64,000 nt of DNA, taken from Betaproteobacteria bacterium (GTDB taxonomy: Bacteria; Pseudomonadota; Gammaproteobacteria; Burkholderiales; Burkholderiaceae_C). The DNA lies in NCBI GenBank assembly GCA_016868355.1, contig VGHB01000013.1, positions 5,985-69,984 of the forward strand, in the 5' to 3' direction. Positions 23,096-49,062 of the stretch are shown here, piece after piece. A program made the position numbers and the translations under genes. The stretch's first letter is position 1. Every line of letters begins with the position of its first letter. The notes beneath the pieces were generated by a model. It was not told the origin of the DNA. It was given only the letters and a program-made list of their open reading frames with translations, and searched no databases.

Positions 23096-23105
23096 GGCCG
23101 CAAAC

Positions 23106-25585: not shown

Positions 25586-25598
25586 GACAAACTCCGCT

Positions 25599-27518: not shown

Positions 27519-30074
27519 ATGAAATTCCCGCGTACGCCGATTGCCGGTGCCACACAGGCCTTTTGCTCCGTCAGCTTGGCAGTGATTGCCTTGTATCCGA
27601 ATGCTGCGCAGGCGCAAAGCGCCGCGGGGGCAGCGGGCTCGGCATCGGCTGCCCAACCGGCCAAAGCCGACCTCCAGCAAATCACCGTAACGGCTACTCG
27701 GCGCGAGGAGGCCGCGCATCGCGTGCCCTTCAACATCAGCGCACTGTCCGAAGATGAACTTCGAGACCAAAACATCACCGATGCAAAGAAGTTGATTGCC
27801 GCCAGCGAAGCCATCAACGCGCCTGGCAACAGCGCGCGCTTTGCTGACTCGGTGACCGTGCGCGGCCTTAATGTGTCCCCGGTAGCGGCCAACAACTTGG
27901 AGCAGTTCATCCGCTCCACCCTGGCGTACTACCTAGATGACACCATGCTGCCCCATCTGGGCTACCGAATTAAAGACATCGCGCGGGTGGAGACACTTTT
28001 GGGCCCGCAAGGCACCTTGTACGGTGCTGGCAGCCTTGGTGGAACGATCCGATTTATTTCCAATCAGCCGAAGCTAGGCAAGACCGAAGGCCGCATCGGC
28101 ACCTCCTTCTACCAAACCAAGCATGGCGGGATTTCCAGCGATATCGATGGCGTCATCAACCTGCCGCTGGCTCAGGACATAGCCCTTCGCGCATCGGTGG
28201 CCCGGCTGGACGAGAAGGGTTACATCGACCGACTGTCCAACCCACCGTGGCGCACCGGCATTTGGGCATGGTCAAGCAAGCCAGACGCCAACCGCAACCT
28301 CTATGAGGACGATAACTGGCAAAAGGTCAACACGGGGCGTGTTGCCCTACGCTGGCGGCTCACACCCACCGCTGAGTTGACCTTCACACATGCGCAGCAA
28401 AGCCAGTTGGCCAACGGCAGCAATGGCGCCAGCGTCACACCGGTGAATATCGCCAACGCCACCAACGCAGCCCAGGTGGATGCCGCTTGGAGGCTCGGTC
28501 GTAACTGCACAGCCCAAGGGATCGCCTGCACCTATAAAGTGGCCACCGATGCGCCGTATGTGGTCAACGATCACACGATCGTCTCGCGATACCCCGAGTT
28601 TGCTGACCGCAGCTTCCGCTTGGACAGCCTTGCGCTGGACCTCAACCTCGGCTTTGCCAAGCTGAACTCCAACACCTCACGTTTTCGCGACGCCCGAGTA
28701 GGACAAGCCGACTATGCCCGCCAAGGTAATCTTTTCTACAACTGGTTCACCGCCGGCAACATCCAGAAGTCGAACAATTCTCTGTACATGACGTTTGACA
28801 ACACCTACACGGGTACCACGCATGAAACACGACTGGTATCGACGGGTACAGGTCCCATGAGTTGGGTTGCGGGTGTGTTTCTGATGCAGCAAAAGCGCAA
28901 CTTCAAGTTTGACGAGATGTTCCCGGGCTTGGACACCCTGCCATCACAGGGTGACTTCATCTCGATTGCTGCTCAGGGTGGCCGCAAGGCCCTGGGAGGC
29001 GTTACCGACTCGGGCTATGCCGAAAACCTGGGCAGTGAGTACCGCGAGAAGGCCGTCTTTGGTGAGGTGAGCTACGCTCTGACCCCGGCACTGAAGGTGA
29101 CCTATGGCACACGGATATTCAACTACGAAGATGTAGGAACGGCCTTTGTTTTCGACTATGCCGGCGGTTTATCTGATAACAATTCCCGTGCAAGCAGCAG
29201 CGGCAGCAACAAAGCTATTCATAAGCTTAATTTTGTCTACAACCTCAACCGCGACCTGCTGAGCTATCTGACCTATTCACAGGGTTTCCGTCGCGGCGGC
29301 AACAACGGTTTCAAGAGCTTTCCGAGCAAGAATCAAATCGTCGCACCGGACACCAATGGCTACGGGCCTGACACCACGAATAACCTGGAGTTGGGACTCA
29401 AGGGCTTCTTGCTGGATCGTCGCCTGTTGCTGCAGACGGCGATTTATCGGATCGACTGGAAGAACGTTCAAACCTACTACTCGCAGGGGCTGCCGGACCC
29501 CTTTGGTTTGGGGATTGACTTCCCCATCAACGGCACTACCAATGGCCCCAACGCAAGGTCAGCAGGAGGTGAGCTTTCGGCCAGGCTGGCGCTCAACCAA
29601 AATTGGCAGACTCACTTCAGCGCAGCCACCACGGGGGCTGAGTGGACCTCCACGCTCAAGCGCTGCACCTACATCGCAAACAACAGACCCGCAGACTGTC
29701 GCACCTGGACTGCTGGCGGCAAGCTCTACGGCGCGCCCAGCTTGAAGTACACGATGGGGGTTCAGTACAACCATCTGCTGAGCAGCGGTCACGAGTTCAC
29801 TTCAAGCCTAAGCCGGCGTTGGGTGGGAAAGATCGGTAATGACCGGACCGACGCGCCAGATACCAACCCGCCCCTGTTCTACCCCTCCTATGCCCTGGTC
29901 AATGCCAGCGCTGGTCTGGCCAAGGGGCCATGGAACGCAACGCTGTGGGTTCAAAACTTGGGTGACACGCGGGCCTTGGTCTCCATTCAAAATGCGCTTG
30001 ACCAAGTGGTCGGGCCGCGCTTGATCTACAACGTGCCACGCACGGTGGGTCTGAACCTGGGCTACCGCTTTTGA
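27519..30074 (+). CDS. TonB-dependent receptor
   Basis: 851 aa. GGAG lies 8 nt upstream of the ATG. Signal MKFPRTPIAGATQAFCSVSLAVIALYPNAAQA. Plug ITVTATRREEAAHRVPFNISALSEDEL .. VTVRGLN. C-terminal NVPRTVGLNLGYRF. Confidence 0.9.
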   Translation: MKFPRTPIAGATQAFCSVSLAVIALYPNAAQAQSAAGAAGSASAAQPAKADLQQITVTATRREEAAHRVPFNISALSEDELRDQNITDAKKLIAASEAINAPGNSARFADSVTVRGLNVSPVAANNLEQFIRSTLAYYLDDTMLPHLGYRIKDIARVETLLGPQGTLYGAGSLGGTIRFISNQPKLGKTEGRIGTSFYQTKHGGISSDIDGVINLPLAQDIALRASVARLDEKGYIDRLSNPPWRTGIWAWSSKPDANRNLYEDDNWQKVNTGRVALRWRLTPTAELTFTHAQQSQLANGSNGASVTPVNIANATNAAQVDAAWRLGRNCTAQGIACTYKVATDAPYVVNDHTIVSRYPEFADRSFRLDSLALDLNLGFAKLNSNTSRFRDARVGQADYARQGNLFYNWFTAGNIQKSNNSLYMTFDNTYTGTTHETRLVSTGTGPMSWVAGVFLMQQKRNFKFDEMFPGLDTLPSQGDFISIAAQGGRKALGGVTDSGYAENLGSEYREKAVFGEVSYALTPALKVTYGTRIFNYEDVGTAFVFDYAGGLSDNNSRASSSGSNKAIHKLNFVYNLNRDLLSYLTYSQGFRRGGNNGFKSFPSKNQIVAPDTNGYGPDTTNNLELGLKGFLLDRRLLLQTAIYRIDWKNVQTYYSQGLPDPFGLGIDFPINGTTNGPNARSAGGELSARLALNQNWQTHFSAATTGAEWTSTLKRCTYIANNRPADCRTWTAGGKLYGAPSLKYTMGVQYNHLLSSGHEFTSSLSRRWVGKIGNDRTDAPDTNPPLFYPSYALVNASAGLAKGPWNATLWVQNLGDTRALVSIQNALDQVVGPRLIYNVPRTVGLNLGYRF

Positions 30075-30094: not shown

Positions 30095-31546
30095 TCAGCG
30101 CCCAACGACGCTTGTCCACAAGGCGGTCAGCACGCGGCCCTCGTCAGGCGCGAGTGAGGTCCATCCCAGCTTCGGTCCATAAGGAGATCGGCTCGGGCTA
30201 CCCAAGAGCACGATCAAGCCGTTGCGCCGCACCGGATCCAGTGCAAAGGTCCCCAGCAGGCCGTAGGCATCTCCCAGATGGCCCCAGCCGCTGAAACCAC
30301 CGCCTTCAACCAGACGGTCGCCTAAGCCGGGGCCCCTGTTGCGGTCGGTGAAGCGTTGCGGCCCAAGCGCCCAGGAGACCATGGCCTCGTCCAAGGTGTC
30401 GCCGTTGGGCGCTTGCGGTTCATAGCGCCACTGTTCGGTGCTGAGCAAGCGCATCGCGTTATCGCTCAACAAGCTTTGGCCGCGGTGGCGTCCACCATTG
30501 AGCAGCATCTGCATCAACACCCCCAAGTCATCGCTGGAAATCCGCAAGCCGCCTTGTGGGCTGAAAACCGTCGCATTGCTGCCCGGCACATAGCGGTCCA
30601 GGCCCAGCGGTGCGGCCGGCCGGCTTGCGCGGTGGTCGTCGACCTGCGGCCACCAAGGGCCCTCAGGTTCCCAAATTTCACGCTCGCCCTCCAAGCGGCG
30701 CCGGCGGTACAGGGTGGCCAGGTCCTGGAGCTCATCGCGGGAAAGCGCCGAGGGCAAAAAGCCACCACGAAGCCCCAGCGGTTGCAAGACCAGGCGCTGC
30801 ATCAGCTGATCGAATCGCTCACCGGTGGCGCGCTCCATCACGGTGCCCACCACACCCCAGTTCAGGTTCACATAGTTGAACCAGCTGCCCGGTGCGCGCT
30901 GGCGCCGCCAGCTCAGCCCCCCACGGTACAAGGCCCCCGCGGGGTGCAACACGTCGCGCAAAGCCACGTCCGGGCCCCAAACATAGAAGCCCGCATCACT
31001 CAAGCCCGAGCGATGCGACATCAACAGGCGCAAGGTGATCGGCTGTTGCGCAAAGTCCGGGTGCCGCAGGCGCCAGCCCAACACATCGCCCACATCGGCA
31101 TCCACATCCAAGCGGCCCTGGTCCACCAAGCGCATCACCGCCACCGACACCACCAATTTCGAAATTGAGGCCACCCGAAACAGGCTGCTTGGCGTGACGG
31201 GAAGATCTTGCGCACGGTCTGTGGGATGGATAAAGCGCCGTCCGTGGTGGCTGCGGTGCACCACCTGCCCATCGCGCAGGGCCAGGGTGCAGAGTTGACC
31301 CCAAGCGCCCGGGTGCTCACCAACCAGGGCCTGCAGTTCCCGGTGAAGTGCTGAGGACCCCTGAGGCGATGGTTGCAGCGCTGGGCTCAGCGCTGGCGCA
31401 GCAGGCCCAGCACCCCGCCCCGCGCTGCAAGCCGCCAAAGACGCCAAGGCGGCACAACCGCCGATCAGGCAGGCGCGGCGATGTGTATTCGCTCCGAGGG
31501 CTCGATCCACGCGAGGCGCGGAACAAGGCGTCAAGCCCTGCTTCAT
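30095..31546 (-). CDS. Beta-lactamase-fold serine hydrolase (PF00144 type; AmpH / DD-peptidase-like), probable lipoprotein
   Basis: The ATG at 31546 overlaps the upstream kinase stop (ATGA). MKQGLTPCSAPRVDRALGANTHRRACLIGGCAALASLAAC (Tat/lipobox-like). SxxK motif in FRVASISKLVV. Confidence 0.7.
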   Translation of the reverse strand: MKQGLTPCSAPRVDRALGANTHRRACLIGGCAALASLAACSAGRGAGPAAPALSPALQPSPQGSSALHRELQALVGEHPGAWGQLCTLALRDGQVVHRSHHGRRFIHPTDRAQDLPVTPSSLFRVASISKLVVSVAVMRLVDQGRLDVDADVGDVLGWRLRHPDFAQQPITLRLLMSHRSGLSDAGFYVWGPDVALRDVLHPAGALYRGGLSWRRQRAPGSWFNYVNLNWGVVGTVMERATGERFDQLMQRLVLQPLGLRGGFLPSALSRDELQDLATLYRRRRLEGEREIWEPEGPWWPQVDDHRASRPAAPLGLDRYVPGSNATVFSPQGGLRISSDDLGVLMQMLLNGGRHRGQSLLSDNAMRLLSTEQWRYEPQAPNGDTLDEAMVSWALGPQRFTDRNRGPGLGDRLVEGGGFSGWGHLGDAYGLLGTFALDPVRRNGLIVLLGSPSRSPYGPKLGWTSLAPDEGRVLTALWTSVVGR

Positions 31547-32484
31547 ACAACGCCCGCCCACAGCCTGCGGGCCCGCTGCGCAGCCGCCGTGGAAGGGTCA
31601 ATCTGACGCAGTTCCAAGGGGCACTCGGCAGGCAGGCCAGCGCGCACACCCTGGCCCACCAAGGGGTGCAGCAGCAGCACACGGCCCGCGGCCACCACGG
31701 GCTTGGGCCCAAATCGACGGAACAGCACTGCGCCCAAGCGGCCGATCTCGATACCGGCACGCCGCAGCAGCAAGGCCGCCTCTGCGTCACCCAGTTCCGC
31801 CGCTTCGGCCACAGCCAGGGCTAATCGCCCCACCTCACCGCGGTCTTGCCCGTAAATGAACTGCCGGGTGCTGGCCCAATCCGAACCCCCCATGCGCGCA
31901 AACAAGCAACGGGCCATGGGGCTCTCCACCCACTGACCAGGCCATTCGTCTTCGCGGCGCCAAATGGTGGACAACGCCTCCTTGGCAATCCAATACCCGC
32001 CGCCTTCATCACCCAGGACGAAGCCCCGCCCACCGGCCCGGTGCCACACACCGTCCCCGTCGATGAACGATGCAATCGAGCCGGTGCCTGCGTACACGAG
32101 ATAGCCACCACCAGGTTCATGGGCCGCGCGAAAGGCGATGTCCATGTCGCTGTGGCACTGCACCTGGTGCGGTGCAGTGCTCAGCCGCGCCGCCACCAGG
32201 CCCGCCAGCTCCAGGGCCAACCCGCCCTGCGGATCGCTAACACCCGTGATGCCGGCGTACGTGCCCGCCACGCGGTGCGCGGGCAGCCGATGTGCCAGTG
32301 TAGCGGCCAGCTCATGCAGCGCTTGGCCAAGCTGCGCGCGGCCGGCCTCCGAAGTCAGGCTCATGCCACTGAAGCCGCCCACCTGCGCCTGTGCCAGCAA
32401 CTGGCCCTGCGCGTCCACGGCGGTCCAGCGGCACGCCGTACCGCCCGCATCCAGGCCCAGGTAGATCACACCTTGATGAACCAT
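31543..32484 (-). CDS. BadF/BadG/BcrA/BcrD-type ATPase; predicted N-acetyl-hexosamine kinase, paralog 2
   Basis: The track ORF runs to 32829, but the homology starts at the ATG at 32484: MVHQGVIYLGLDAGGTACRWTAVD. It then has GYLVYAGTGSIA and GGRGFVLGDEGGGYWIA. Shares long blocks with the 7725..8660 product. Confidence 0.75.
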   Translation of the reverse strand: MVHQGVIYLGLDAGGTACRWTAVDAQGQLLAQAQVGGFSGMSLTSEAGRAQLGQALHELAATLAHRLPAHRVAGTYAGITGVSDPQGGLALELAGLVAARLSTAPHQVQCHSDMDIAFRAAHEPGGGYLVYAGTGSIASFIDGDGVWHRAGGRGFVLGDEGGGYWIAKEALSTIWRREDEWPGQWVESPMARCLFARMGGSDWASTRQFIYGQDRGEVGRLALAVAEAAELGDAEAALLLRRAGIEIGRLGAVLFRRFGPKPVVAAGRVLLLHPLVGQGVRAGLPAECPLELRQIDPSTAAAQRARRLWAGVV

Positions 32485-33596
32485 TGGCGTCGGGCCATCC
32501 AGGCCGCCACGGCATAAAAGACCAGCACAAATCCCAACGCAAACAGCAGCGAGACCTGGACCTCGGGCAGCCCGGTGGGGCGCAAGCCCGCCACCAGGTG
32601 CATCTTCAGGCTCACGCCATCGAACTTGATGAAGGCCAGTCCTTTGGCCACCAAGCCTGCCAGTACGAACAGGAACAGGGCATTCATGCCAAAGTCCACC
32701 AGCGGCTGGGCCCAAGGGCGCCAGCGCGCACGGCTGGCGGCATCGGCCTGGGCATCCAAGACCCAATGGAAAGCCGCCAAGATGAGCAGCGCCCAGCCGG
32801 CAGTGCTGGCCACATAGGCAGGGGTCCACAAGGATTTGTTGATGGGCATGTTCGAGGCCGCCAACAGCTCACCGGCCCACAAGGCCAACAAGCCGGCCAG
32901 CACCAGACCCATGCAGCGCCGCCCCGGCTCTTGGGCCTGCGCCATCCAATGCCCGGTCAACACACCGGCCAACAGTGTGGACACCGCCGGCAAGGTGCTT
33001 AACAAGCCCTCGGGGTCCCAGGTGCGAGACTGGGCCCACAAGTGGCCGCCCATCAGCAAGCGGTCAACATAGCTGCCGGTGTCTTGTCCGGCCAGCAGCG
33101 AACCCACGCGCACCACACCGTCATCACCCGGCACCGGTACCGCCAGCATCAGCACGCTGTACAGCACCAGCAGGCCCGCAGCTGTCCAAGCTTGGCCACG
33201 AACCTTTAACCACACCACCGCCGGCGCACACAGCACGATGCACAAACCAATGCGTTGCAACACACCCGGCCAGCGCAGCGTGTTCCAGTCAAAGGCGGGC
33301 ACCGCATTGAGCATCAAGCCGATCAACATGATCACCAGCCCGCGGCGCATCAGGCCCCGGCACAGGGTCAAGGGCCCAGCGCCTTCGTGCTGCCGACGGG
33401 CCAAGCTCATGGGCATGGCCACGCCGCTGATGAAGATGAAGAAGGGAAAGATCCAGTCGGTGAAGGTCCACCCGTCCCACGGTGCGTGCAGCAAAGGACC
33501 GTACACATGCTTCCAGTCGCCCGGGTTGTTGACCAGCAGCATCGCCGCGATCGTCATGCCACGAAAGGCATCAAGGCTGTACAGCCGCCCGTTCAC
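32466..33596 (-). CDS. Transmembrane acyltransferase of the DUF1624/DUF5009, HGSNAT-like family (NagX-like)
   Basis: The GTG at 33596 overlaps the ampG stop (GTGA); the track ORF extends to 33731. (V)NGRLYSLDAFRGMTIAAMLLVNNPGDWKHVYGPLLHAPWDGWTFTDWIFPFFIFISG is the conserved N-terminal block of heparan-alpha-glucosaminide N-acetyltransferase-like membrane proteins. About 10 TM segments. Confidence 0.7.
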   Translation of the reverse strand: MNGRLYSLDAFRGMTIAAMLLVNNPGDWKHVYGPLLHAPWDGWTFTDWIFPFFIFISGVAMPMSLARRQHEGAGPLTLCRGLMRRGLVIMLIGLMLNAVPAFDWNTLRWPGVLQRIGLCIVLCAPAVVWLKVRGQAWTAAGLLVLYSVLMLAVPVPGDDGVVRVGSLLAGQDTGSYVDRLLMGGHLWAQSRTWDPEGLLSTLPAVSTLLAGVLTGHWMAQAQEPGRRCMGLVLAGLLALWAGELLAASNMPINKSLWTPAYVASTAGWALLILAAFHWVLDAQADAASRARWRPWAQPLVDFGMNALFLFVLAGLVAKGLAFIKFDGVSLKMHLVAGLRPTGLPEVQVSLLFALGFVLVFYAVAAWMARRQWFIKV

Positions 33597-34885
33597 GCAA
33601 CCGGCTCCCGTCGGCCGAAGTTTTCCGGCACCCGGATCAGGGCTGTCATCACAAAGGACGGAATGGCCGCCACCATCACCCACACGAAAAAGCCAGCATA
33701 GCCCAAGGCCTCCTGAAGCCAGCCGCTCCAAAAGCCCGGGATCATCATGCCCATGGCCATGAAGCCGGTGCAGATGGCGTAGTGCGCCGTCTTGTGCGGC
33801 CCCTCGGCGATCAAGATCATCACCATCAGGTAGGCCGCAAAACCGACGCCATAGCCGAACTGTTCAATGGCCAAGGCTGTGCTGACCACCCACAGCTGCT
33901 GCGGCGGCGACAACGCCATGGCCAAGAACACCAGGTTGGGCAGGTGCATGCCCCACACCAAAGGCCACAAGCAGGCCTTCAAGCCAAACCGCGAAATCAG
34001 CAGCCCGCCCACGATACCCCCGACCGTCAAGGCGATCAGGCCCACCGTGCCATAGGCCACCCCCACCTCGCGGGTGGAAAGGCCCAAGCCGCCTGCTTCA
34101 GCGGGGTCTAGCAGAAAGGGCGTCGCCATCTTCAGCAACTGCGCTTCCGGAAAACGGTAGAGCAAGAGGTAGGCGATGCCCACCGCGATGGCAGGCTTGC
34201 GGAAGAACGTACCCAACACCGAGAAGAACTCGATGAACAAGCTGGAGTGGACCGTACCCGGCCGGTCTTCAGCCGGATAGGGCAAGCGCCAAGCGTGGTA
34301 CAGGCCCACCACGCCGAAGCACACCGCCAATAAAGCCATCACCACCTGCCACGCCACCACCGCCGAGCCGCTGCGTTCGGCCACCTCGCCGGCCAGGTAC
34401 ACCAGCCCCCCCTGCCCGGCGATATTGGCCACGCGGTAAAAGGTGGAACGGATGCCCACGAAGGCCGCCTGCTGGTGCGTGGGCAGGGCCATCATGTAGT
34501 AGCCATCGGCTGCAATATCGTGGCTGGCACTGGCAAAGGCCATGAGCCACAACAGGGCCAGGCTCCAGCGCACCCACTGCTCGGTGGGCAGGCTCAGCGC
34601 CACCATCGCCACCATCGCACCCACCGCAAACTGCAGCAGCCAAATCCAGCGCCGCCGCGTGCCCAAGAGTTCAATCAAGGGGCTCCAAAGCGGCTTGATC
34701 ACCCACGGCAGGTACAGCCAGCTTGTGTACAGCGCGATGTCGGTGTTGGACATCCCCAAGTTCTTGTACATCACCACGCTCAGTGACATCACCACCACAT
34801 AGGGCAGGCCCTGCAGCAAGTAGAGGCTAGGCACCCAGGCCCAGGGGCCAGGGCCGGGCCCTTCAGTTCGAAGCGTCGAGGTCAA
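33593..34885 (-). CDS. ampG: AmpG-family MFS muropeptide permease
   Basis: PWAWVPSLYLLQGLPYVVVMSLSVVMYKNLGMSNTDIALYTSWLYLPWVIKPLWSPLIE matches the AmpG block (..LWSPL..). The start is uncertain: TTG at 34885 with a GAAGGG 7 nt upstream is preferred, and the track start at 34969 would overlap nagA by 107 nt. Confidence 0.75.
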   Translation of the reverse strand: MTSTLRTEGPGPGPWAWVPSLYLLQGLPYVVVMSLSVVMYKNLGMSNTDIALYTSWLYLPWVIKPLWSPLIELLGTRRRWIWLLQFAVGAMVAMVALSLPTEQWVRWSLALLWLMAFASASHDIAADGYYMMALPTHQQAAFVGIRSTFYRVANIAGQGGLVYLAGEVAERSGSAVVAWQVVMALLAVCFGVVGLYHAWRLPYPAEDRPGTVHSSLFIEFFSVLGTFFRKPAIAVGIAYLLLYRFPEAQLLKMATPFLLDPAEAGGLGLSTREVGVAYGTVGLIALTVGGIVGGLLISRFGLKACLWPLVWGMHLPNLVFLAMALSPPQQLWVVSTALAIEQFGYGVGFAAYLMVMILIAEGPHKTAHYAICTGFMAMGMMIPGFWSGWLQEALGYAGFFVWVMVAAIPSFVMTALIRVPENFGRREPVA

Positions 34886-36014
34886 TGGCCTGCCCTTCCA
34901 CCACCACCTGCTGCAGCTGCAGCGAGTGGGGGTCCAACACCACCAGGTCTGCCCAGGCACCCTGCGCAATCACCCCGCGGTCGCTCAAGCCCAGGTACTG
35001 CGCGGCGTGCGTGCTCACACGCGCGCTGGCCTGGGCCACCGACAGCCCAATCTGCACCAGGTTTCGCAAGGCCTGGTCCATGGTCAAGGCGCTGCCGGCC
35101 AGGGTGCCATCGGCCAGGCGCACGCCACCCAAGCACTTGTGCACCGTGTATTGCCCCAAGGGATAGGCGCCATCGGGCATGCCCGCTGCAGCCGTTGCAT
35201 CGGTCACGGCAAACAGGCCGGGCACTGCACGCACGGCTGCATGGATGGCGCCAGGGTGTACATGCAACAGGTCGGGAATGATTTCCGCATGCTCTGCGTG
35301 GGCCAAGGCAGCCCCGACCGCACCGGGCGCCCGGTGGTGCATCGGGCCCATGGCGTTGAACAAATGGGTGAAGCCAGAAGCGCCGTGCCGCAACGCCTGT
35401 AAGGCCTCTTCATAGGTGGCCCGGGTATGGCCCACCTGAACCCGGATACCGGCGGCCACCAATTCAGGAATCAGGGCCAGATTGCCAGGCATCTCAGGGG
35501 CCAGCGTCAGCACGCGAATCGGCGCCAACGCATTCAGGCGCAGGATGTCCTGCAAGGAGGCCGCTTGGGCGTGTGGTGGTTGCGCCCCAAGCTGATCAGG
35601 ACTGATGTAAGGCCCCTCCAGGTGCACACCCAAGACACGCGCGGCCTGATCGGCGCGCTGCAAGCACTGCGCAGACAAGGCCCTCAGGGCGGCCTCAATC
35701 TCCGGTAGTGGCGCGGTCATGGTGGTGGCCAACAAAGAGGTGGTGCCATGTCGCGCATGGGTGCGCGCCAAGCACTGCACCGCATCCTGGCCTTCCATGG
35801 TGTCGCGGCCGCCGCCGCCGTGGATATGCAGATCGATAAAGCCCGGCAGGATCAAAGGCGGCGCTTGCTCCGCCCGAAGCTCGTGCTCGACAAGCGTGCC
35901 CTGCACGCCAACCACGCGGCCCTGCGACCAGTGCACCTGCCCCTGCACCCAGCCACCAGGGGCCAAGACCTGACCGCTCAGGAAGGCTGAACGACTCTGA
36001 GCAGCTTGGCCCAT
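34863..36014 (-). CDS. nagA: N-acetylglucosamine-6-phosphate deacetylase
   Basis: LILPGFIDLHIHGGGGRD, HLEGPYISP, GFTHLFNAM and AVTDATAAAGMPDG are NagA amidohydrolase blocks. Start taken at ATG 36014 (alternatives 36053 and 36071). Confidence 0.85.
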   Translation of the reverse strand: MGQAAQSRSAFLSGQVLAPGGWVQGQVHWSQGRVVGVQGTLVEHELRAEQAPPLILPGFIDLHIHGGGGRDTMEGQDAVQCLARTHARHGTTSLLATTMTAPLPEIEAALRALSAQCLQRADQAARVLGVHLEGPYISPDQLGAQPPHAQAASLQDILRLNALAPIRVLTLAPEMPGNLALIPELVAAGIRVQVGHTRATYEEALQALRHGASGFTHLFNAMGPMHHRAPGAVGAALAHAEHAEIIPDLLHVHPGAIHAAVRAVPGLFAVTDATAAAGMPDGAYPLGQYTVHKCLGGVRLADGTLAGSALTMDQALRNLVQIGLSVAQASARVSTHAAQYLGLSDRGVIAQGAWADLVVLDPHSLQLQQVVVEGQAIDLDASN

Positions 36015-36230
36015 GGAGGCCCCGCCCTTGACATTTCGGCGTGGTGCGTGCATTCCGCGATCATCGCTCAAAAGTCAGGCCATGCCCTTGTTCACCGCCG
36101 CCAGACGCAACCGCACACGGCGCGAGCGATGGCACCGGTGCCCGGCCAGCGCCGCAGGCCCTGATGCCTGCGGGCTCTGATGCCCCCAGGCCCTTTCTAT
36201 ACTGCGCACCGCACAGACCCGAGACCACAC

Positions 36231-37478
36231 ATGGCGCTGAATTTCATTTGGATCGGCTTCATCCTCATTGGCTTTGCCGTAGCGGCGGTCAAGGTGGCCA
36301 TGGGGCAAACAGCCCTGTTTGGCCAAATGCTCAGCGGGCTGTTTGACATGGCCAAGACGGGCTTTGACATCTCACTGGGCCTGGTGGGAGTGATGACGCT
36401 GTGGCTGGGCATCATGAAGATCGGCGAGCAGGCCGGCGTCATCCAATTATTTGCGCGCGGCGTGGCGCCGTTCTTCCGCCGCATCTTTCCCGGCATTCCA
36501 CCGGGCCACCCGGCCAGCGGCAGCATTGCGATGAATGCATCGGCCAACATGCTGGGGTTGGACAACGCAGCCACCCCATTGGGTCTGAAGGCCATGCGCG
36601 AGCTTCAGGAGATCAACACCGACAAGTCGGTAGCCTCCGACCCCATGATCATGTTTCTGGTGCTCAACACGGCTGGCATCACCTTGATTCCCGCTTCTGT
36701 GATCGCCATCCGCCAAAGCTTGGCAGCCGAACAAGGGCTGAGCAACTTCAACGGCGCCGACATCTTTTTGCCCACCCTGATCGGTACCTTCATCTCGTTC
36801 ACCGCAGGCCTGCTGGCCGTGGCCTGGGTGCAGCGCATCAAGCTGCTGTGCGCACCGGTGCTGGCCTTCTTTGGCGGCTTTGCGGCCCTGATGGGCGTGC
36901 TGTACCTGTGGCTGTCCGGTATGCCGGCAGCTCAAATGGCACAGTCGATTTCGGTCCTGGGCAGCGGCATCATTTTGGCCATCATCGTCACCTTCGTTGC
37001 GGTCGGTGCGCTAAGGCGCGTGAATGTTTATGAAGCCTTTGTGGACGGTGCCAAGGAAGGCTTTGGGGTGGCGGTGCAGATCATTCCCTACCTGGTGGCC
37101 ATGCTGGCGGCCATCTCTGTGTTTCGCAGCAGCGGCTGCATGGACTATCTGGTGCAGGGCATTGGTGCGGGTGTGCGGGCCCTGGGGCTGGACGACCAGT
37201 TCGTGCCCGCACTGCCCGTGGGCTTGATGAAGACCATGTCGGGCAGCGGCGCACGCGGCCTGATGGTCGATGTGCTCAAGACCTATGGCGTGGACTCTTT
37301 TGAGGGGCGACTGGCCAGCATCATTCAGGGGTCTACCGAAACCACCTTCTATGTGTTGGCGGTGTACTTTGGCAGCGTGGGAATCAAGAAGACGCGCCAT
37401 GCCCTGGGCTGCGCGCTGACCGCCGACGCCGTGGGTTTGATCGGCGCCATCATTGTCGGATATGCGTTTTACGGCTGA
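36231..37478 (+). CDS. Fused SpmA/SpmB-like nucleoside-recognition (Gate) domain membrane protein
   Basis: The ATG at 36231 gives MALNFIWIGFILIGFAVAAVKV.. Two Gate-like halves in ~415 aa, including GVMTLWLGIMKIGEQAGVIQLFARGVAPFFRRIFPGIP. The architecture matches fused spore-maturation-protein A/B homologs. Confidence 0.65.
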   Translation: MALNFIWIGFILIGFAVAAVKVAMGQTALFGQMLSGLFDMAKTGFDISLGLVGVMTLWLGIMKIGEQAGVIQLFARGVAPFFRRIFPGIPPGHPASGSIAMNASANMLGLDNAATPLGLKAMRELQEINTDKSVASDPMIMFLVLNTAGITLIPASVIAIRQSLAAEQGLSNFNGADIFLPTLIGTFISFTAGLLAVAWVQRIKLLCAPVLAFFGGFAALMGVLYLWLSGMPAAQMAQSISVLGSGIILAIIVTFVAVGALRRVNVYEAFVDGAKEGFGVAVQIIPYLVAMLAAISVFRSSGCMDYLVQGIGAGVRALGLDDQFVPALPVGLMKTMSGSGARGLMVDVLKTYGVDSFEGRLASIIQGSTETTFYVLAVYFGSVGIKKTRHALGCALTADAVGLIGAIIVGYAFYG

Positions 37479-37517
37479 ACGGCGCAGCCAGCTGGGTTGA
37501 AGGGCAGGACCACCGGC

Positions 37518-38771
37518 ATGCGAACGTTCACACACGCTGAACTGGCCCACGCCCTTTGCGACGGTCTTCAAGCCAGCCTTGGCCAAGCTCCGGCCTTTGA
37601 CCCGTCGCCGACCATTGATTTGGCGGTGGTGGCCTTTGCGCCGGGTGCGCCCGCGGTGTGGGCCAATGCGCTGTGCACTCGAGGCCATGCGGCCCCCGTG
37701 GTGGCAGACATCGGCCCGGATGCCTCCAGTGTTCGGGGCATACGCTATTGGGCCGACCCGACCGACGATCAGCGGCGCTCCATCGCATGGCTGCCCGGGT
37801 CCGACTGGCGGAAGCTCGATGGCCTGCAAAGCCTGTACGGCAGCGGCCCCGTGGAGTCGATTGCCCCCTACCCGGCTTCGCTGATCAAGTTGATGGTGGC
37901 CGTTGGCGTAGGCCTGTTGGTGGATCGCAACCGGGCTCAATGGAGCGAAGCCTGGGCTTGGGGTGGCCGCACACGAACCGTGCTTCAGTGGACCGACGGC
38001 ATGGTCACCGAAAGCCGCAACGAGGACACCAGCGCCTTGGTGGCCTTGCTACATGTGCGGGGCCTGATCAAAACTCCGCATTCAGGTGATCACGCCCAGG
38101 CCGGCCGCCAAGTTGCCCCTGCTGGGGTGAACCGGCTGCACGATGTGTTTCGGGCGTACGGCTTGCCCACTTTGCGTCTGGACCGCACGCGCGCTGATGG
38201 GGGCTGGCTCAACCAAGACGGTTCAGGCGTGGGCCACCTGCAGATGACCGCCTGGGATACCGCACGGCTGCTGTGGTTGATGCTGCCGGCGGTGATGCCC
38301 GCGTGCCCTGCGCCTGCCTGGCTGCCGGCCCAAACGCCCGCCCTGCTGCAGCCACACACCGCCCGTGTCCTGTGGCAACTGCTGGACGACCAGGCGCTGC
38401 ATGAGGTGTTGTCGTCCTCGGTCAGCGTAGGCATGCCCGGGTGGAGGCCCGGCATCCCGGCCGCGGTACCCGAGCGTTGGGTGATGCCCAACGGGCGCGT
38501 GGCCGCGGCCGACCGACAGTGGCCGGGAGACACCCGCGCCGTGCATGCACAAGCCCAGGTGAAGTTCGCCCACAAGACGGGCACGACCGAGAACTATGCC
38601 TCAGACGCAGGTTGGGTGCGCAGCCTGCGCCCCGGTGGGCGGCAGTACCTGGTGGCGATGCTGTCGACGCTGGGATCGCGCCATGCACCCCAGCCCGGTT
38701 TGGCCACCGATTGGTGCATTCCAGCCCTGGGCGCACGCATCGATGCCTGGCTTGCCGATCGGCTTGGTTAG
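37518..38771 (+). CDS. Class-A-beta-lactamase-like / DD-peptidase-fold serine hydrolase
   Basis: ATG at 37518 (the track start at 37497 is a TTG). SxxK in YPASLIKLMVAVG, SxN-like ESRNED, KTG in FAHKTGTTENY. Lies 39 nt downstream of the SpmAB-like gene. Confidence 0.6.
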   Translation: MRTFTHAELAHALCDGLQASLGQAPAFDPSPTIDLAVVAFAPGAPAVWANALCTRGHAAPVVADIGPDASSVRGIRYWADPTDDQRRSIAWLPGSDWRKLDGLQSLYGSGPVESIAPYPASLIKLMVAVGVGLLVDRNRAQWSEAWAWGGRTRTVLQWTDGMVTESRNEDTSALVALLHVRGLIKTPHSGDHAQAGRQVAPAGVNRLHDVFRAYGLPTLRLDRTRADGGWLNQDGSGVGHLQMTAWDTARLLWLMLPAVMPACPAPAWLPAQTPALLQPHTARVLWQLLDDQALHEVLSSSVSVGMPGWRPGIPAAVPERWVMPNGRVAAADRQWPGDTRAVHAQAQVKFAHKTGTTENYASDAGWVRSLRPGGRQYLVAMLSTLGSRHAPQPGLATDWCIPALGARIDAWLADRLG

Positions 38772-39058: not shown

Positions 39059-41929
39059 ATGAAACTCAAGCCGATCGCACAAACACTGGCTGCCCTCAGC
39101 CTCATCTCGCCCGTTCTGGCGCAACAGGCAGCCGAACAACGGGTGGAGATCACCGGCTCGAGCATCAAACGCCTGGCCAGCGAAGGCGCCCTGCCCGTAC
39201 AGGTCATCACCCGTGCCGAGATCGAACAGCAGGGCCTGACCAGCACCGAGCAGGTGATCCTGTGGTTGTCCACCAACGGCAACGGTTTAGATAACCTGGC
39301 CTCCAACGCCGACGTGGTGGGCGGTGCCCAACGGGGCAACAACGGTGCCACCAGCGCCAACCTGCGCGGCCAAGGCAGCAACGCCACCTTGATTTTGTTG
39401 AACGGCCGGCGTGTGGCCGCGCACGGTCTGAACGGCGGCGTGGTCGACCTGAACCAGGTTCCAATAGCCGCCATCCAGCGCATTGAAGTGCTCAAGGACG
39501 GCGCCAGTTCGATCTACGGTACCGACGCCATCGGCGGCGTGATCAACTTCATCCTGCGCACCGACTACCGCGGGGCCTCGATTCAGGGCACCAGCGACGT
39601 CACGCAGGCCGGTGGTGGCAACATCTACCGTGCTTCGGTGGTCGCCGGCACCGGTGACCTCAGCCGAGATGGCTACAACCTGATGGCGGTTTTGGCGCGG
39701 CGCGAGCACCAGGCCCTGCGTGGCGACCAACGCGACTTTGTCAACACCTTTCAGCCCAACCGAGGCTTGAGCGTGGACACCCGCGGCACACCGTTTGCCA
39801 CCATCTTCCCCTTGGCCGGCACCCTATTCCCCGCCGCCACATCTTTCCCCTTCGTACCCGGCAGCACCACGGTGCGGGCCTCGGGTGGACTGAATGTGCT
39901 GGACCTGCCGGGTGCCGAAGGATGCGGCTCGATCACCGGCCAAGCACCCTACGACGCCCTGTTGTGGAACGTGCCCACGGCCGCCCTGGCTTGCGCCTGG
40001 GACACTGGCCGCGCGGCGGTGCTGCAACAACCCATCAGCGGCACCAACCTGGTGGCACGCGCCACCTTCAAGTTGGGTGAGCACCAGTTGGCCGCCGAGT
40101 TCACCGGCAGCCAAACCGAGTCGGCCAAGCGTTTTTCGAACGTACAGTTGACGCCCAACACCACAACTCAACAGCTTCGCTTCCCCCGCAACGCTGCCTC
40201 GCAGGCAGCCTATGACGCGGTCTTCAATCGCTTGCGGTCGGCCTTCCCGAGCCAGATCACCGAGGCGCAGCGCGGCCAGTCGCTTGCCTACCGCTGGCGT
40301 TGCATGGAGTGCGGCCCGCGTGAACTGGAAACCGACACCACCACACAACGTTGGGCTGTCACCATGGACGGCCCACTGGGCAAAGGGTGGGACTACCGTG
40401 CAGGCCTGATCCAAGCCACCAGCCAAGCCAAGTCCAAGCTCGGCTCGGGCTACTACTACCGCGGCACCACAGCCACCGGCGCATCCGATGGCGGCCCGGG
40501 CATCATCCCGGCGCTGAACAGCGGGCGCATCAACATCTTCCTGTTCCCCGGTCAGACCCAAAGCGCCGACGGCCTTGCGGCCCTGCAAGAAGCCTCGGCG
40601 GCTGGCGTGGTGCTGTACGGCGGCAAGTTCACCATGCAACAAGCCGACTTCACGGCTTCGGGCCCGGTGGCCAAGTTACCCGCCGGCGAGGTCATGGCCG
40701 CACTGGGGGCCGATGTGCGGCGGGAAGAGTACCGTTTCAATGGCGACGAACGCGACCTGCCTGCCCAGCGCATCATCGTTGCCGCGCCCTTTGACCAGAC
40801 CAACGTGCTTTTGGGCGCCAAACGTGAGGTCAAGGCCCTCTACGGCGAATTGCTGGTGCCCATCACCAAGCAACTGGAAACCACGTTGTCGGCTCGGCGC
40901 GACGACTACACCGGTTTTGGTGTCACCACCAATCCCAAGGTGTCGGCCCGCTGGAAGCCTTTTCAACAGTTCCTGGGCCGTGGCTCCTACAGCACCGGGT
41001 TCCGGGTGCCCACCTTCAACCAACTCTACAACGGCTCGGCCGAGTCACTGTTCACCGGCACCACGCTGGTGGACCCCAAGACCTGCCCCGGCGGTCGCCC
41101 GAACACCACCGATCCTGGCTGCGCGTTCATTGACCGTGCCGCCAACATCATCAACGGTGGCAAGCCTGACCTCGGCCCCGAAGAGGCCAAGATGGGTTCC
41201 GTGGGCTTCATCGTCGAGCCCAGCGCCAATCTGAGCATCGGACTGGACTGGTGGTCCATCCGCCGCGAGGGCACGATCCAAATCCTGTCACTGACCCAGC
41301 TGATCGACAACTACAAGCTTTTCCCCGAGCGCTTCATTCGGGATGGGGCCGGCAAGATCATCGCGGTCGACCAACGCTGGATCAACGCCGGCGAGACCGA
41401 AACCTCGGGTGTTGAGGTGACCCTGCGCAGTGGCTTCATGGCGATGGACGCACGCTGGACCGCCGGGTTGGACGGCACCTATTTGCTCAAGAAGCGTTCG
41501 CGCGTGGTGCCCTCTGCGGCCTGGAGCGCCAGCGAAGTCGGCCAATTCAGCTTTGCCGGTGACTTGGGGCTGCGTTGGAAGCACAGCGCCTTCCTCACCC
41601 GCAGCAAGGGCTCATGGGTCAGCACCATTTCGCAGGTCTTCCGCAGCGGCTACAACGACCAGGTGCTGCCCGGCGTGGCCGCTGGCGCCGTCACGCCGCC
41701 CGATTGGAAGAGCCGTGTGGACAGCTACACCACCTACAACATGGCGCTGACCTACACCGGCATCAAGAACCTGCGGGTGACCGGCCTGATCAAGAATGTG
41801 TTCGACCGTGACCCGCCGTTTGCCATCACCTATGACAGCAACTTCGGCTCGGGCAGCTCGTGGGAGCCCCGTGTTACAGACCCGCGCGGCCGTGCCTTCG
41901 TGGTCAGCTTCGATTACAGGTTCCGCTGA
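39059..41929 (+). CDS. TonB-dependent receptor
   Basis: 956 aa. GGAG upstream of the ATG. Signal MKLKPIAQTLAALSLISPVLAQ. Plug VEITGSSIKRLASEGALPVQVITRAEIEQQGLTS .. ANLRGQGSNATLILLNGRR. C-terminal RAFVVSFDYRFR. Confidence 0.9.
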   Translation: MKLKPIAQTLAALSLISPVLAQQAAEQRVEITGSSIKRLASEGALPVQVITRAEIEQQGLTSTEQVILWLSTNGNGLDNLASNADVVGGAQRGNNGATSANLRGQGSNATLILLNGRRVAAHGLNGGVVDLNQVPIAAIQRIEVLKDGASSIYGTDAIGGVINFILRTDYRGASIQGTSDVTQAGGGNIYRASVVAGTGDLSRDGYNLMAVLARREHQALRGDQRDFVNTFQPNRGLSVDTRGTPFATIFPLAGTLFPAATSFPFVPGSTTVRASGGLNVLDLPGAEGCGSITGQAPYDALLWNVPTAALACAWDTGRAAVLQQPISGTNLVARATFKLGEHQLAAEFTGSQTESAKRFSNVQLTPNTTTQQLRFPRNAASQAAYDAVFNRLRSAFPSQITEAQRGQSLAYRWRCMECGPRELETDTTTQRWAVTMDGPLGKGWDYRAGLIQATSQAKSKLGSGYYYRGTTATGASDGGPGIIPALNSGRINIFLFPGQTQSADGLAALQEASAAGVVLYGGKFTMQQADFTASGPVAKLPAGEVMAALGADVRREEYRFNGDERDLPAQRIIVAAPFDQTNVLLGAKREVKALYGELLVPITKQLETTLSARRDDYTGFGVTTNPKVSARWKPFQQFLGRGSYSTGFRVPTFNQLYNGSAESLFTGTTLVDPKTCPGGRPNTTDPGCAFIDRAANIINGGKPDLGPEEAKMGSVGFIVEPSANLSIGLDWWSIRREGTIQILSLTQLIDNYKLFPERFIRDGAGKIIAVDQRWINAGETETSGVEVTLRSGFMAMDARWTAGLDGTYLLKKRSRVVPSAAWSASEVGQFSFAGDLGLRWKHSAFLTRSKGSWVSTISQVFRSGYNDQVLPGVAAGAVTPPDWKSRVDSYTTYNMALTYTGIKNLRVTGLIKNVFDRDPPFAITYDSNFGSGSSWEPRVTDPRGRAFVVSFDYRFR

Positions 41930-41948
41930 GATCGGTTGAGCCGCCAAG

Positions 41949-42902
41949 GTGAGGCTACGCCACCTTGAGGTCTTTCATGCTGTGATGCGCGCTGGCACCG
42001 TCAGTGGTGCCGCGCGTCTGCTGCACATCTCGCAGCCGGCGGTCAGCAAGGTGCTGCAGCATGCGGAAGCCCAACTGGGCCTGACCTTGTTCGAACGGGT
42101 GGCGGGGAAGTTTCACCCCACGCCTGAAGCGCGCCGCTTGTTCGCCGAGGTGGACAAGCTGCACGCTGAGTTGATGTCGATACGGCGCCTGGCCGTCAAC
42201 CTCAAGAGCGGGCCGCAGCAGCGGGTGCGGCTGTCGGTGACGCCGGCCTTGGGTGCCACCGTCGTGCCTTTGGCCGTAGCGCGTTGGTCCCGCAGCTTTG
42301 CTTCTGGCCACTGCGAACTGGCCACCCACCACACGCGCGAACTGGTCCAAGCCTTGATCCTGTCAGAGCTGGATCTGGGCCTGACGCTGCAAGACCCGCA
42401 GCACCCTGGAGTGCATGCAGAGGTGCTCACCCGAGCGCCGATGATGGCCCTGCTGCCGGCGCGTGGGGCCGCTCTGCGCGCCCGCACCGCGGTGCGCCTG
42501 GAGTCCCTGCCCCGTCACTTGATTGGCCTGTCACCGCAAGACCCACTGGGCCTGAGGCTCACGGCCGAATGTGAGGCACTGGGCCTGTCGCTGCAGCCGC
42601 AGGTTTCGGTGCAGACCTATCAGCTGGCGCGGCAGTTGGCGGAGGCCGGCGTGGGTACCGCCATCGTGGACCCGTTCACCGCAGCACAGGCCGATCGTGG
42701 TCGGGTGGCGGTTCGGCCCGTTGAGCCCTTGATCACCGTTCCCCTGGTCCTGTTGACCCCAGTGGCCGCCCCGCTGTCGCAGCCCGCGCGGCGCTTGGTG
42801 CAGGAGCTGCGCCAGTCGGCCAGTGTCTGTCTGCATGAGGCCGGCATTGCCGAAGTTGCCGAGCCCGGCTCGGCAGCCGAGCGGCGTGCACGGACGCGTT
42901 GA
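41949..42902 (+). CDS. LysR-family transcriptional regulator
   Basis: 317 aa. HTH (M)RLRHLEVFHAVMRAGTVSGAARLLHISQPAVSKVLQHAE. Confidence 0.9.
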   Translation: MRLRHLEVFHAVMRAGTVSGAARLLHISQPAVSKVLQHAEAQLGLTLFERVAGKFHPTPEARRLFAEVDKLHAELMSIRRLAVNLKSGPQQRVRLSVTPALGATVVPLAVARWSRSFASGHCELATHHTRELVQALILSELDLGLTLQDPQHPGVHAEVLTRAPMMALLPARGAALRARTAVRLESLPRHLIGLSPQDPLGLRLTAECEALGLSLQPQVSVQTYQLARQLAEAGVGTAIVDPFTAAQADRGRVAVRPVEPLITVPLVLLTPVAAPLSQPARRLVQELRQSASVCLHEAGIAEVAEPGSAAERRARTR

Positions 42903-42917
42903 TCACCGCCTGCAGCC

Positions 42918-43577
42918 ATGACCCCACACCCGAGCGCTTCTGGACCCGCCCGCGAGCCTGAGCCGGTGGCACCCACGCTGACCTGCGAAACCATAGGGCG
43001 GCACGCCGACTTTGTGCACCTGTCCACCGTCCCCGGCATTGCTGTGGACATCCGCTACGCCAGCGAGTCCAACTTTGCCGGGCGCAGTCTGTACAAGGGA
43101 CTGGACTGCGCTTGGCTGCGCCGGCCGGCCGCGCAGGGTCTGGCCCGCGCGGCGCAGTGGTTGGCTGCGCAGCGCCCGGGCTACGCGCTGCGGGTGCTGG
43201 ATGCCCTGCGCCCGCAGCGTGTGCAGGAAGCCATTTGGCAAGAGGTGCGCGGCACGCCGATGGCCGCCTACTTTGCCGAGCCTGTGCGCGGCTCGATCCA
43301 CTCATTCGGCATGGCGGTCGACGTGACGCTGTTGAATCCGCAAGGCCTGGAGTGCGATATGGGCAGCCGGTACGACGAAATGAACCGACTCTCTCACCCC
43401 AACCTGGAAGCGCAGCACCTGGCCCTCGGGCACTTGGAGGCCCAGCACTTGGTGGACCGGGGCTGGCTGTATGCGGCCATGGCCCAGGGTGGTTTTGTGG
43501 GCATTTCCACCGAGTGGTGGCACTTCGATCATGGCGATCGCGAACAAGTACGACGGGAGATGCAACGTGTGTGGTGA
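42918..43577 (+). CDS. ddpX: D-alanyl-D-alanine dipeptidase (VanX/DdpX, peptidase M15D), cytoplasmic
   Basis: 219 aa. IAVDIRYASESNFAGRSLY, VLDALRPQRVQ, SIHSFGMAVDVTL and EWWHFD are VanX-family zinc-site blocks. No signal peptide. Confidence 0.8.
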   Translation: MTPHPSASGPAREPEPVAPTLTCETIGRHADFVHLSTVPGIAVDIRYASESNFAGRSLYKGLDCAWLRRPAAQGLARAAQWLAAQRPGYALRVLDALRPQRVQEAIWQEVRGTPMAAYFAEPVRGSIHSFGMAVDVTLLNPQGLECDMGSRYDEMNRLSHPNLEAQHLALGHLEAQHLVDRGWLYAAMAQGGFVGISTEWWHFDHGDREQVRREMQRVW

Positions 43578-46501: not shown

Positions 46502-46583
46502 GCATTTCAACTTTTGAACTGCAGCGCCGGCATCAGGGCTGCAACGGGTGTTCGACCTTGATGGCCAGGCGCACAATTGGTGC

Positions 46584-49057: not shown

Positions 49058-49062
49058 GGACC

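Follow-up and report, generated by a model that had tools for sequence, protein, structure and literature searches.

A transmembrane protein of the HGSNAT/NagX/MurT family coupled to a Bacteroidota-type AmpG in a betaproteobacterial peptidoglycan-salvage operon

Bacterial membrane proteins related to human HGSNAT make up a common family (101 of 251 sampled Bacteroidota genomes encode a MurT homologue) that bears two incompatible labels, MurT transporter and NagX acetyltransferase. MurT of Tannerella forsythia is called a sodium-symporter or major facilitator superfamily (MFS)-type transporter in the literature. It was published as a transporter of N-acetylmuramic acid (MurNAc): an Escherichia coli strain without murP needs murT and murK together to grow on MurNAc (PMC5790795). 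A 2022 study proposed NagX to be a membrane-spanning glucosamine N-acetyltransferase that works alongside NagA and a permease for N-acetylglucosamine (GlcNAc); its mutants in five bacteria lost growth on glucosamine (GlcN), not on GlcNAc, and NagP was still needed with NagX in the fitness data (PMC9007349). The same study remarked on a distant relation between NagX and T. forsythia MurT, and a 2025 survey of the TmAT superfamily names no DUF5009 protein with a confirmed function and cites neither the NagX nor the MurT claim (PMC12423673). A periplasmic glucosaminidase of Stenotrophomonas that is also called 'NagX' is an unrelated namesake and irrelevant here. Which of the two labels fits a family member that is encoded among peptidoglycan genes? 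The case analysed here is the third of five genes, hereafter gene 3 (X in gene orders), of an operon in a 64,000-nucleotide stretch of DNA (the window; positions 5,985 to 69,984 of contig VGHB01000013.1, assembly GCA_016868355.1) from a small freshwater-type betaproteobacterium with a 2.7-Mb genome that is 99.99% complete. Coordinates given without a locus name refer to the window.

Between 36014 and 30095, five genes follow one another on the minus strand in the order nagA, an ampG-like gene, gene 3, a BadF-type kinase gene and a gene for an S12 serine hydrolase, and they overlap at all four junctions. The first of them, nagA (34863..36014, encoding N-acetylglucosamine-6-phosphate deacetylase; TIGR00221 at 253.8 bits with a cut-off of 225.65, and PF01979), begins at ATG 36014, which is preceded by a G-rich Shine-Dalgarno-like stretch, and its TGA stop (34865-34863) is overlapped by 23 nt if the ampG-like gene starts at TTG 34885. 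Use of the next in-frame start, a GTG at about 34834, would delete the conserved PWAW motif, and alignments of ampG orthologues mostly begin at query residues 9-14, the PWAW region (among the matches listed). The ampG-like gene meets gene 3 in a GTGA (33596-33593); the TGA stop of gene 3 (32468-32466) lies within the kinase gene when the latter starts at ATG 32484, a 19-nt overlap that becomes a 4-nt GTGA if the alternative kinase start GTG 32469 is used; and the kinase and hydrolase genes share an ATGA (31546-31543). Scans for promoters and terminators were uninformative, with no enrichment of terminator-like sites within the operon (9 versus 5.7 +/- 2.5 in shuffles). Since high-GC operons commonly have overlapping starts and stops, the overlaps are taken as an operon marker and nothing stranger. 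That the five genes form one translationally coupled operon is well supported, as is its role in peptidoglycan amino-sugar salvage, of which it carries out the steps at the inner membrane and in the cytoplasm. A previous sequence-only reading had listed these five open reading frames with their four overlaps, assigned each to a family and described gene 3 as an HGSNAT-like protein with about 10 transmembrane (TM) helices. All of this held up: the reading frames and overlaps are present at the positions that it gave, domain scans (TIGR00221, TIGR00901, PF07786, PF01869, PF00144) agree with every family call, and gene 3 combines a PF07786 match with a predicted structure of about 10-11 membrane helices.

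The product of gene 3 (32466..33596, minus strand), a TNAT-fold membrane protein, comprises 376 amino acids (most of its close homologues have 376-377) and represents a short bacterial form that starts at an RxxxxDxxRG motif equivalent to HGSNAT residue 267. It matches PF07786 with 44.3 bits (cut-off 22) and the NagX model NF046061 with 173.3 bits (cut-off 480), and by sequence it finds the HGSNAT chains in the PDB with an E value of 6e-19 at 22-23% identity. An AlphaFold (AF2) model built from 30 homologues (predicted local distance difference test score, pLDDT, 84; predicted template modelling score, pTM, 0.86) retrieved 15 HGSNAT chains in Foldseek at template modelling (TM) scores of 0.73-0.78, with E values down to 8e-14, and GWT1, an acyl-CoA-dependent membrane acyltransferase, at 0.61; the top genuine transporter reached about 0.2. 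All of the model's structural neighbours are thus acyl-CoA-dependent transmembrane acyltransferases, which, as far as a predicted structure can tell, would support an acetyltransferase.

Residue roles were taken from the HGSNAT structure papers (PMC11199644, PMC11357348) and mapped to gene 3, in which all 12 of the acetyl-CoA, catalytic and glucosamine-ligand residues that were checked are present. R4, D9, R12 and R85 (HGSNAT R267, D272, R275 and R345) correspond to the cytosolic mouth and the ligands of the CoA diphosphate, M19 (M282) to the cysteamine contact, N23 (N286) to the oxyanion residue, H37 and D47 (H297 and D307) to the catalytic dyad, P51 (P311) to a conserved TM3 proline in the stretch lining the pantothenate group of CoA, R108 (R372) to the ligand of the GlcN 6-OH, and D194 and E196 (D497 and E499) to the luminal mouth and the GlcN 3-OH. 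H37, D47 and N23 are invariant in 30 close homologues. Across a set of 92 proteins (27 of clade A and 14 of clade B, as defined below, 10 from other Gammaproteobacteria and 41 from Bacteroidota), each of the 12 positions is conserved in 91-92, the single exception being an Asp/Glu alternation at position 497. T. forsythia MurT, which despite its sodium-symporter or MFS label belongs to the HGSNAT-fold family, keeps all 12 as well: a protein labelled 'transporter' carries the full HGSNAT catalytic set, which is new here. The shared residues argue for one mechanism common to the whole family. As a means of telling an enzyme from a transporter they fail, because they are kept family-wide, in MurT and in all 92 proteins alike.

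How closely, then, does the locus resemble the one from which MurT was described? The relevant contig of T. forsythia ATCC 43037 was located through a pattern from a published primer, and its operon Tanf_08345-08385 comprises ampG, ybbC/namZ, murT (390 amino acids), murK and murQ, with murT and murK overlapping. MurT (Tanf_08375, L084:13484-14656) shares 35% identity with gene 3 along its entire length and matches the NagX model, likewise in full, with 122 bits. The two systems have in common a Bacteroidota-type AmpG, an HGSNAT-like protein, a BadF-type kinase, MurQ, a wall glycosidase and translational coupling, and the gene neighbourhood is of the MurT type insofar as the kinase gene and ampG adjoin gene 3 in the window and murQ lies nearby in 21 of 26 relatives. 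They differ in that the glycosidase is GHL10 here and YbbC there, in that murQ and the GHL10 gene of the window lie 13 kb away, and in that the present organism has MurA. MurNAc auxotrophy as in Tannerella is ruled out by the presence of MurA.

The AmpG-family MFS permease of the operon (33593..34885, minus strand) is the only AmpG-family gene that a profile search found in its own genome. Over the full length it shares 49% identity with T. forsythia AmpG; with the AmpG that most genomes of its own family carry it shares only 26-30% (among the matches listed). Its TIGR00901 score of 167 bits falls under the 350-bit cut-off; since T. forsythia AmpG, which has been functionally validated (PMC5388701, PMC7670621), itself scores 175 bits, the cut-off evidently excludes this AmpG subtype. 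In this lineage canonical AmpG is replaced by the Bacteroidota-type AmpG, a substitution described here for the first time. Several Roseateles/Pelomonas-like relatives have solely this AmpG type and its paralogues, among the matches listed.

Compared with the NagX proteins of Shewanella, Caulobacter and Echinicola, gene 3 shares the family, the length class, the catalytic His and the link to nagA and a BadF-type kinase. Unlike them, it stays at 173 bits where the equivalog cut-off is 480, lacks a NagP partner, abuts AmpG and stands among peptidoglycan genes, not chitin or GlcNAc genes, the NagB-II gene being about 9 kb off in another operon. The bit score of the NagX model was rejected as a proxy for function, the Shewanella-like nagB-nagA-nagX context group scoring about 130 bits, under the 173 of gene 3. 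With human HGSNAT (PDB 8vlg, 8jkv, 8tu9) gene 3 shares the transmembrane fold (TM score 0.78) and the 12 residues; it is without the luminal beta-sandwich domain and TM1 (376 versus 663 amino acids), and HGSNAT acts on alpha-GlcN in heparan sulfate, where a bacterial enzyme would act on a beta-linked or free sugar. As in E. coli recycling, the AmpG, NagZ, NagK, AnmK, MurQ, NagA and LdcA steps are all encoded in this genome; unlike there, an HGSNAT-like step, absent from E. coli, is added, and the subfamilies of AmpG and the kinase differ.

To see how widely this arrangement is spread, 201 genomes of the order, 301 of the family, 400 of the class and 251 of Bacteroidota were sampled. Homologues of gene 3 occur in 10 genomes of the order sample and 48 of the family sample, with a bimodal score distribution that separates clade A (at least 370 bits, 51-94% identity) from clade B (about 100-175 bits). 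A co-occurrence analysis of NagX-like genes with ampG, which the sequence-only reading had called for, was run: in the family sample, 20 of the 22 clade A genes have a same-strand AmpG gene 0-45 bp away, and the pairing of gene 3 with ampG is far beyond chance. Clade B genes stand within 3 kb of an AmpG-like paralogue in 29 of 41 cases, in operons of the type nagA-nagB-II-GH3-ampG-like-orphan-X that are without murQ. The orphan is a gene for 305 amino acids without a Pfam or NCBIfam match, seen between the AmpG-like and NagX-like genes at L034:8067-8984, and most clade B loci have a gap of about 1 kb in its place. In one genome (G231) a presumptive Rosetta-stone fusion of AmpG with gene 3 turned out to be no fusion, ampG there having a larger central loop and a stop of its own.

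In 26 clade A loci, ampG is directly upstream of gene 3 in 21, murQ precedes ampG in 21, the GHL10 gene is directly downstream in 22 and a kinase gene lies in the stretch in 15, from which it follows that the ancestral order was murQ-ampG-X-GHL10(-kinase-S12); because GHL10 and murQ flank ampG and gene 3 in the relatives, they are assigned to the same functional module. The order found in the window, nagA-ampG-X-kinase-S12, is confined to this genome and a congener (94% identical) among these loci, and both have GHL10 and murQ relocated 13 kb away, beside amiD. In Roseateles saccharophilus, the genes of a compact murQ-ampG-X-GHL10 operon overlap by 4 nt. At L031:5892-15020, in another family of Burkholderiales, an eight-gene run nagA-nagB-murQ-X-GHL10-kinase-amiD-S12 is without ampG; six of its junctions overlap, the S12 gene follows amiD after 10 nt, and an SpmA/B-like Gate protein is encoded divergently. 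Operon-type AmpG orthologues are without gene 3 alongside in 14 of 32 cases. Nine such loci were fetched, four of which (L086, L087, L088 and L091) read murQ-ampG-GHL10, three of these with a kinase, and three more ampG-GHL10 only. Most genomes with a gene 3-less cluster carry a clade B paralogue elsewhere.

Beyond the family, 10 of the 400 class genomes have any member, three of them in a nagB-nagA-X context without ampG, and no genome in that sample exceeds the NagX cut-off. In the 40 Bacteroidota loci that were fetched, a MurK-like kinase was found in 10, GHL10 in 12 and AmpG within 8 kb in three, and one Bacteroidota subclade of what is termed clade II below pairs the protein with a BadF kinase in nine of nine cases. 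In a Flavobacteria-type locus (L119:4587-11107), genes for a GHL10 protein and an NAGPA phosphodiester glycosidase, both secreted by the type IX secretion system (T9SS), adjoin the HGSNAT-like gene, a BadF kinase gene is divergent, and no other transporter is encoded within 9 kb; this gene set hints at an attack on Gram-positive walls linked to teichoic acid.

A maximum-likelihood tree of the 92 proteins, which leaves out the fitness-validated Shewanella NagX, splits the family into deep groups with Shimodaira-Hasegawa-like approximate likelihood ratio test (SH-aLRT) supports of 96-98. Clade II unites all of clade A, gene 3 included, with the Bacteroidota members that are paired with kinase and GHL10; MurT of T. 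forsythia falls into clade I, together with clade B and the proteins linked to nagB-nagA. A further difference from the T. forsythia operon is therefore that the HGSNAT-like proteins of the two belong to different deep clades. A grouping of clade A with MurT is rejected by the approximately unbiased (AU) test (p = 0.0086), a result weakened by the group having been named after the tree was seen. Going by this tree, gene 3 is not an orthologue of MurT, though its gene context parallels that of MurT. The existence of a deep clade tied to AmpG, GHL10 and the kinase in two phyla is new here.

What does gene 3 contribute to the operon? The answer that we prefer, tentatively and with somewhat less than even confidence, is that it is a transmembrane N-acetyltransferase. 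In the salvage route itself, which is well supported, AmpG imports GlcNAc-(anhydro)MurNAc units. The BadF-type kinase, with NagZ and AnmK from elsewhere in the genome, turns these into the 6-phosphates of GlcNAc and MurNAc, which MurQ, NagA and NagB-II convert to fructose-6-phosphate, and the S12 lipoprotein trims periplasmic stem peptides. Gene 3 would thread cytoplasmic acetyl-CoA through its pore and acetylate a periplasmic glucosamine-type amine, either free GlcN or, in a di- or oligosaccharide that comes from peptidoglycan, a GlcN residue whose 3-OH is unsubstituted. The restored N-acetyl group is probably required by AmpG, GHL10 and NagZ-type enzymes, and de-N-acetylated, lysozyme-resistant wall material would then join the normal route. 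Since an acetyltransferase that spans the membrane makes sense only if acetylation precedes a periplasmic or transport step, such an order of events would explain the tight coupling to GHL10 and to AmpG, whose substrate is periplasmic. The more specific proposal, that periplasmic re-N-acetylation is the bacterial counterpart of the HGSNAT step and licenses fragments for GHL10 cleavage and AmpG import, is possible but should be held more loosely still. By analogy, the glucosamine fitness genetics of NagX in five bacteria (PMC9007349) would support an acetyltransferase, and the invariant Glu at the 3-OH site would suit a GlcN acceptor better than MurNAc, whose O3 bears the lactyl group. In addition, with three other candidate importers (AmpG, a sodium:solute symporter and an SpmA/B-like protein) encoded in the island around the operon, there is no gap in transport that gene 3 would have to fill. 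From fold, residues, synteny and co-occurrence, which were observed, we infer the activity, the acceptor and the order of steps. Several considerations nevertheless weigh against the acetyltransferase: a biochemical assay is absent for the whole family according to the 2025 survey (PMC12423673); and MurT, with the same 12 residues, reportedly allows MurNAc growth of E. coli lacking murP (PMC5790795), so that these residues must be compatible with a conduit. Moreover, the conserved neighbours murQ, GHL10 and the kinase are centred on MurNAc and not on glucosamine, the Flavobacteria-type loci pair the protein with a kinase and have no other transporter within 9 kb, as if for uptake and trapping, and the occurrence of the cluster without gene 3 makes the latter an accessory step. 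The sequence-only reading had put forward re-N-acetylation of de-acetylated fragments on similar grounds; family, fold, the 12 residues and the AmpG pairing speak for it, the presence of the same residues in MurT, the MurNAc-centred partners and an acceptor that we infer speak against it, and it stays plausible to the same limited degree as the acetyltransferase assignment itself. Its description of NagX as predicted but biochemically unresolved is outdated, the acetyltransferase proposal dating from 2022 (PMC9007349). The pathway, the family and the NagX acetyltransferase idea are already known, and only the extension to peptidoglycan and AmpG is new.

Gene 3 may instead be the proteobacterial counterpart of MurT, a conduit for free periplasmic MurNAc (or GlcNAc) released by GHL10 and amidases, in which the HGSNAT residues line or gate the sugar path and the BadF-type kinase traps the sugar as a 6-phosphate for MurQ and NagA. 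We regard this as nearly as likely as the acetyltransferase. The gene set does parallel the Tannerella series ampG-ybbC-murT-murK-murQ, the partner AmpG is of the T. forsythia kind at 49% identity, 21-22 of 26 relatives, as well as R. saccharophilus, have ampG and gene 3 between murQ and GHL10, the eight-gene operon L031 manages without ampG, the Bacteroidota subclade of clade II combines a BadF kinase in nine of nine with the lack of another transporter nearby, and the one experiment on a member from a peptidoglycan context, the rescue of murP-deficient E. coli on MurNAc by MurT plus MurK (PMC5790795), reports entry of MurNAc. Yet the fold is unlike that of any transporter of known structure, and acetyl-CoA ligands together with a His-Asp-Asn set that are invariant across two phyla are hard to explain without catalysis. 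Gene 3 and MurT fall into different deep clades (AU p = 0.0086 for a group named post hoc), the kinase resembles NagK or hexokinases at least as much as MurK and is retained in clusters without gene 3, and the lactyl group of MurNAc should be a poor fit beside the Glu that is invariant at the 3-OH site. Could both activities reside in one protein? An enzyme that depends on acetyl-CoA and also lets N-acetylated amino sugars through its pore, or one that couples acetylation to uptake, would reconcile the NagX genetics, the MurT complementation and the universal conservation of pore and catalytic residues; it is an improbable solution, since the HGSNAT structures speak against passage of the sugar through the membrane (PMC11199644) and since NagP is still needed alongside NagX (PMC9007349). 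Just as little weight is given to the idea that gene 3 has the classical NagX role in using free glucosamine and chitosan sugars, or serves another periplasmic glycan acceptor, and that its adjacency to ampG reflects shared regulation only. Its NF046061 match is full length and at 173 bits higher than the 122 of MurT, and the paralogous clade B does sit in nagA-nagB-GH3 operons without murQ, but the score is far under the equivalog cut-off of 480, the operon has no NagP-type permease, and the partners specific to the clade of gene 3 are the peptidoglycan enzymes GHL10, AmiD, MurQ and S12.

A great deal of organic carbon and nitrogen is stored in peptidoglycan, and walls that have been de-N-acetylated withstand lysozyme-type attack. 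Restoration of acetyl groups outside the cytoplasm, if true, adds a step to recycling and scavenging schemes, a step that would then be widespread in Burkholderiales and Bacteroidota, and the transporter label of T. forsythia 'MurT' would be wrong at least in part. The outcome bears on that organism, in which MurNAc acquisition is considered a drug target. Whatever the answer, proteins labelled MurT and NagX have one intact catalytic constellation, the clade tied to AmpG, GHL10 and the kinase is now defined, and a compact four-gene operon has been identified in a cultivable species.

Can the two remaining genes of the operon help to choose a substrate? The BadF/BadG-type sugar kinase (31543..32484, minus strand; PF01869 66 bits, NagK_SO3507 65 bits with a cut-off of 370) is a candidate GlcNAc and/or MurNAc kinase. 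Its nearest solved structures are the Sulfolobus tokodaii hexokinase and human NAGK (E about 1e-11), MurK of T. forsythia, to which it is 24% identical, following with merely 5e-5. At MurK positions 133-135, where small Ser-Pro-Leu residues give space to the lactyl group, the window kinase has Gly-Gly-Arg like the S. tokodaii enzyme, which is neither bulky or acidic nor MurK-like; as a guide to function these positions were set aside as ambiguous, Gly-Gly-Arg also occurring in that broad-range archaeal hexokinase. The S12 serine hydrolase (30095..31546, minus strand; PF00144 143.6 bits), an R61/AmpH DD-peptidase type whose nearest solved structures are Pab87 and the R61 DD-peptidase, shows SISK, YVN and HLG motifs and an N-terminus that contains RR and then LAAC, features suggesting that it is probably an exported, twin-arginine translocation (Tat)-type lipoprotein of the R61/AmpH type. 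An S12 gene lies beside the kinase gene in loci L026, L028, L029 and L031 as well.

The operon is embedded in an island of about 30 kb that, judged by gene content, imports and dismantles cell-wall fragments. On one side are NagB-II (22968-24143), a sodium:solute symporter, a PGRP-type amidase and an agmatinase-like gene (24113-27265), and a TonB-dependent receptor on the plus strand (27519..30074; Plug domain PF07715, protein ending in ...GYRF), convergent with the operon across a 20-nt gap. Divergent from nagA on the other side (36180..38771, plus strand) are genes for a membrane protein with two SpmA/SpmB-like Gate domains (PF07670 twice) and for a serine hydrolase (PF13354, weakly). A second TonB-dependent receptor, a LysR regulator, a VanX-type D-Ala-D-Ala dipeptidase and the LD-carboxypeptidase LdcA follow on the plus strand (39059..44655), then PBP4, the amiD-GHL10-murQ operon (46548..49959, plus strand; Amidase_2 and PG_binding_1 in AmiD, PF02638 at 191 bits in GHL10, NF003915 at 365 bits in MurQ) and, last in order, DadA and an AstE/AspA-like amidohydrolase. 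With NagZ, AnmK and MurA encoded elsewhere in the genome, NagZ and AnmK together with the island genes complete the standard recycling chemistry, and the TonB-dependent receptors and exported hydrolases point to uptake of foreign wall as well. The Gate protein gene (36180-37478), a candidate importer or exporter of a wall-derived compound, is divergent from nagA also in L008, L026 and L031 (four loci in all), and the block of second receptor, LysR, VanX and LdcA lies beside the cluster also in L026, L028, L031 and L093. The genome further encodes nine polysaccharide-deacetylase (PF01522) domains, several of them in tandem, on contigs C1, C4, C6, C10 and C31, which could be relevant to de-N-acetylated glycans.

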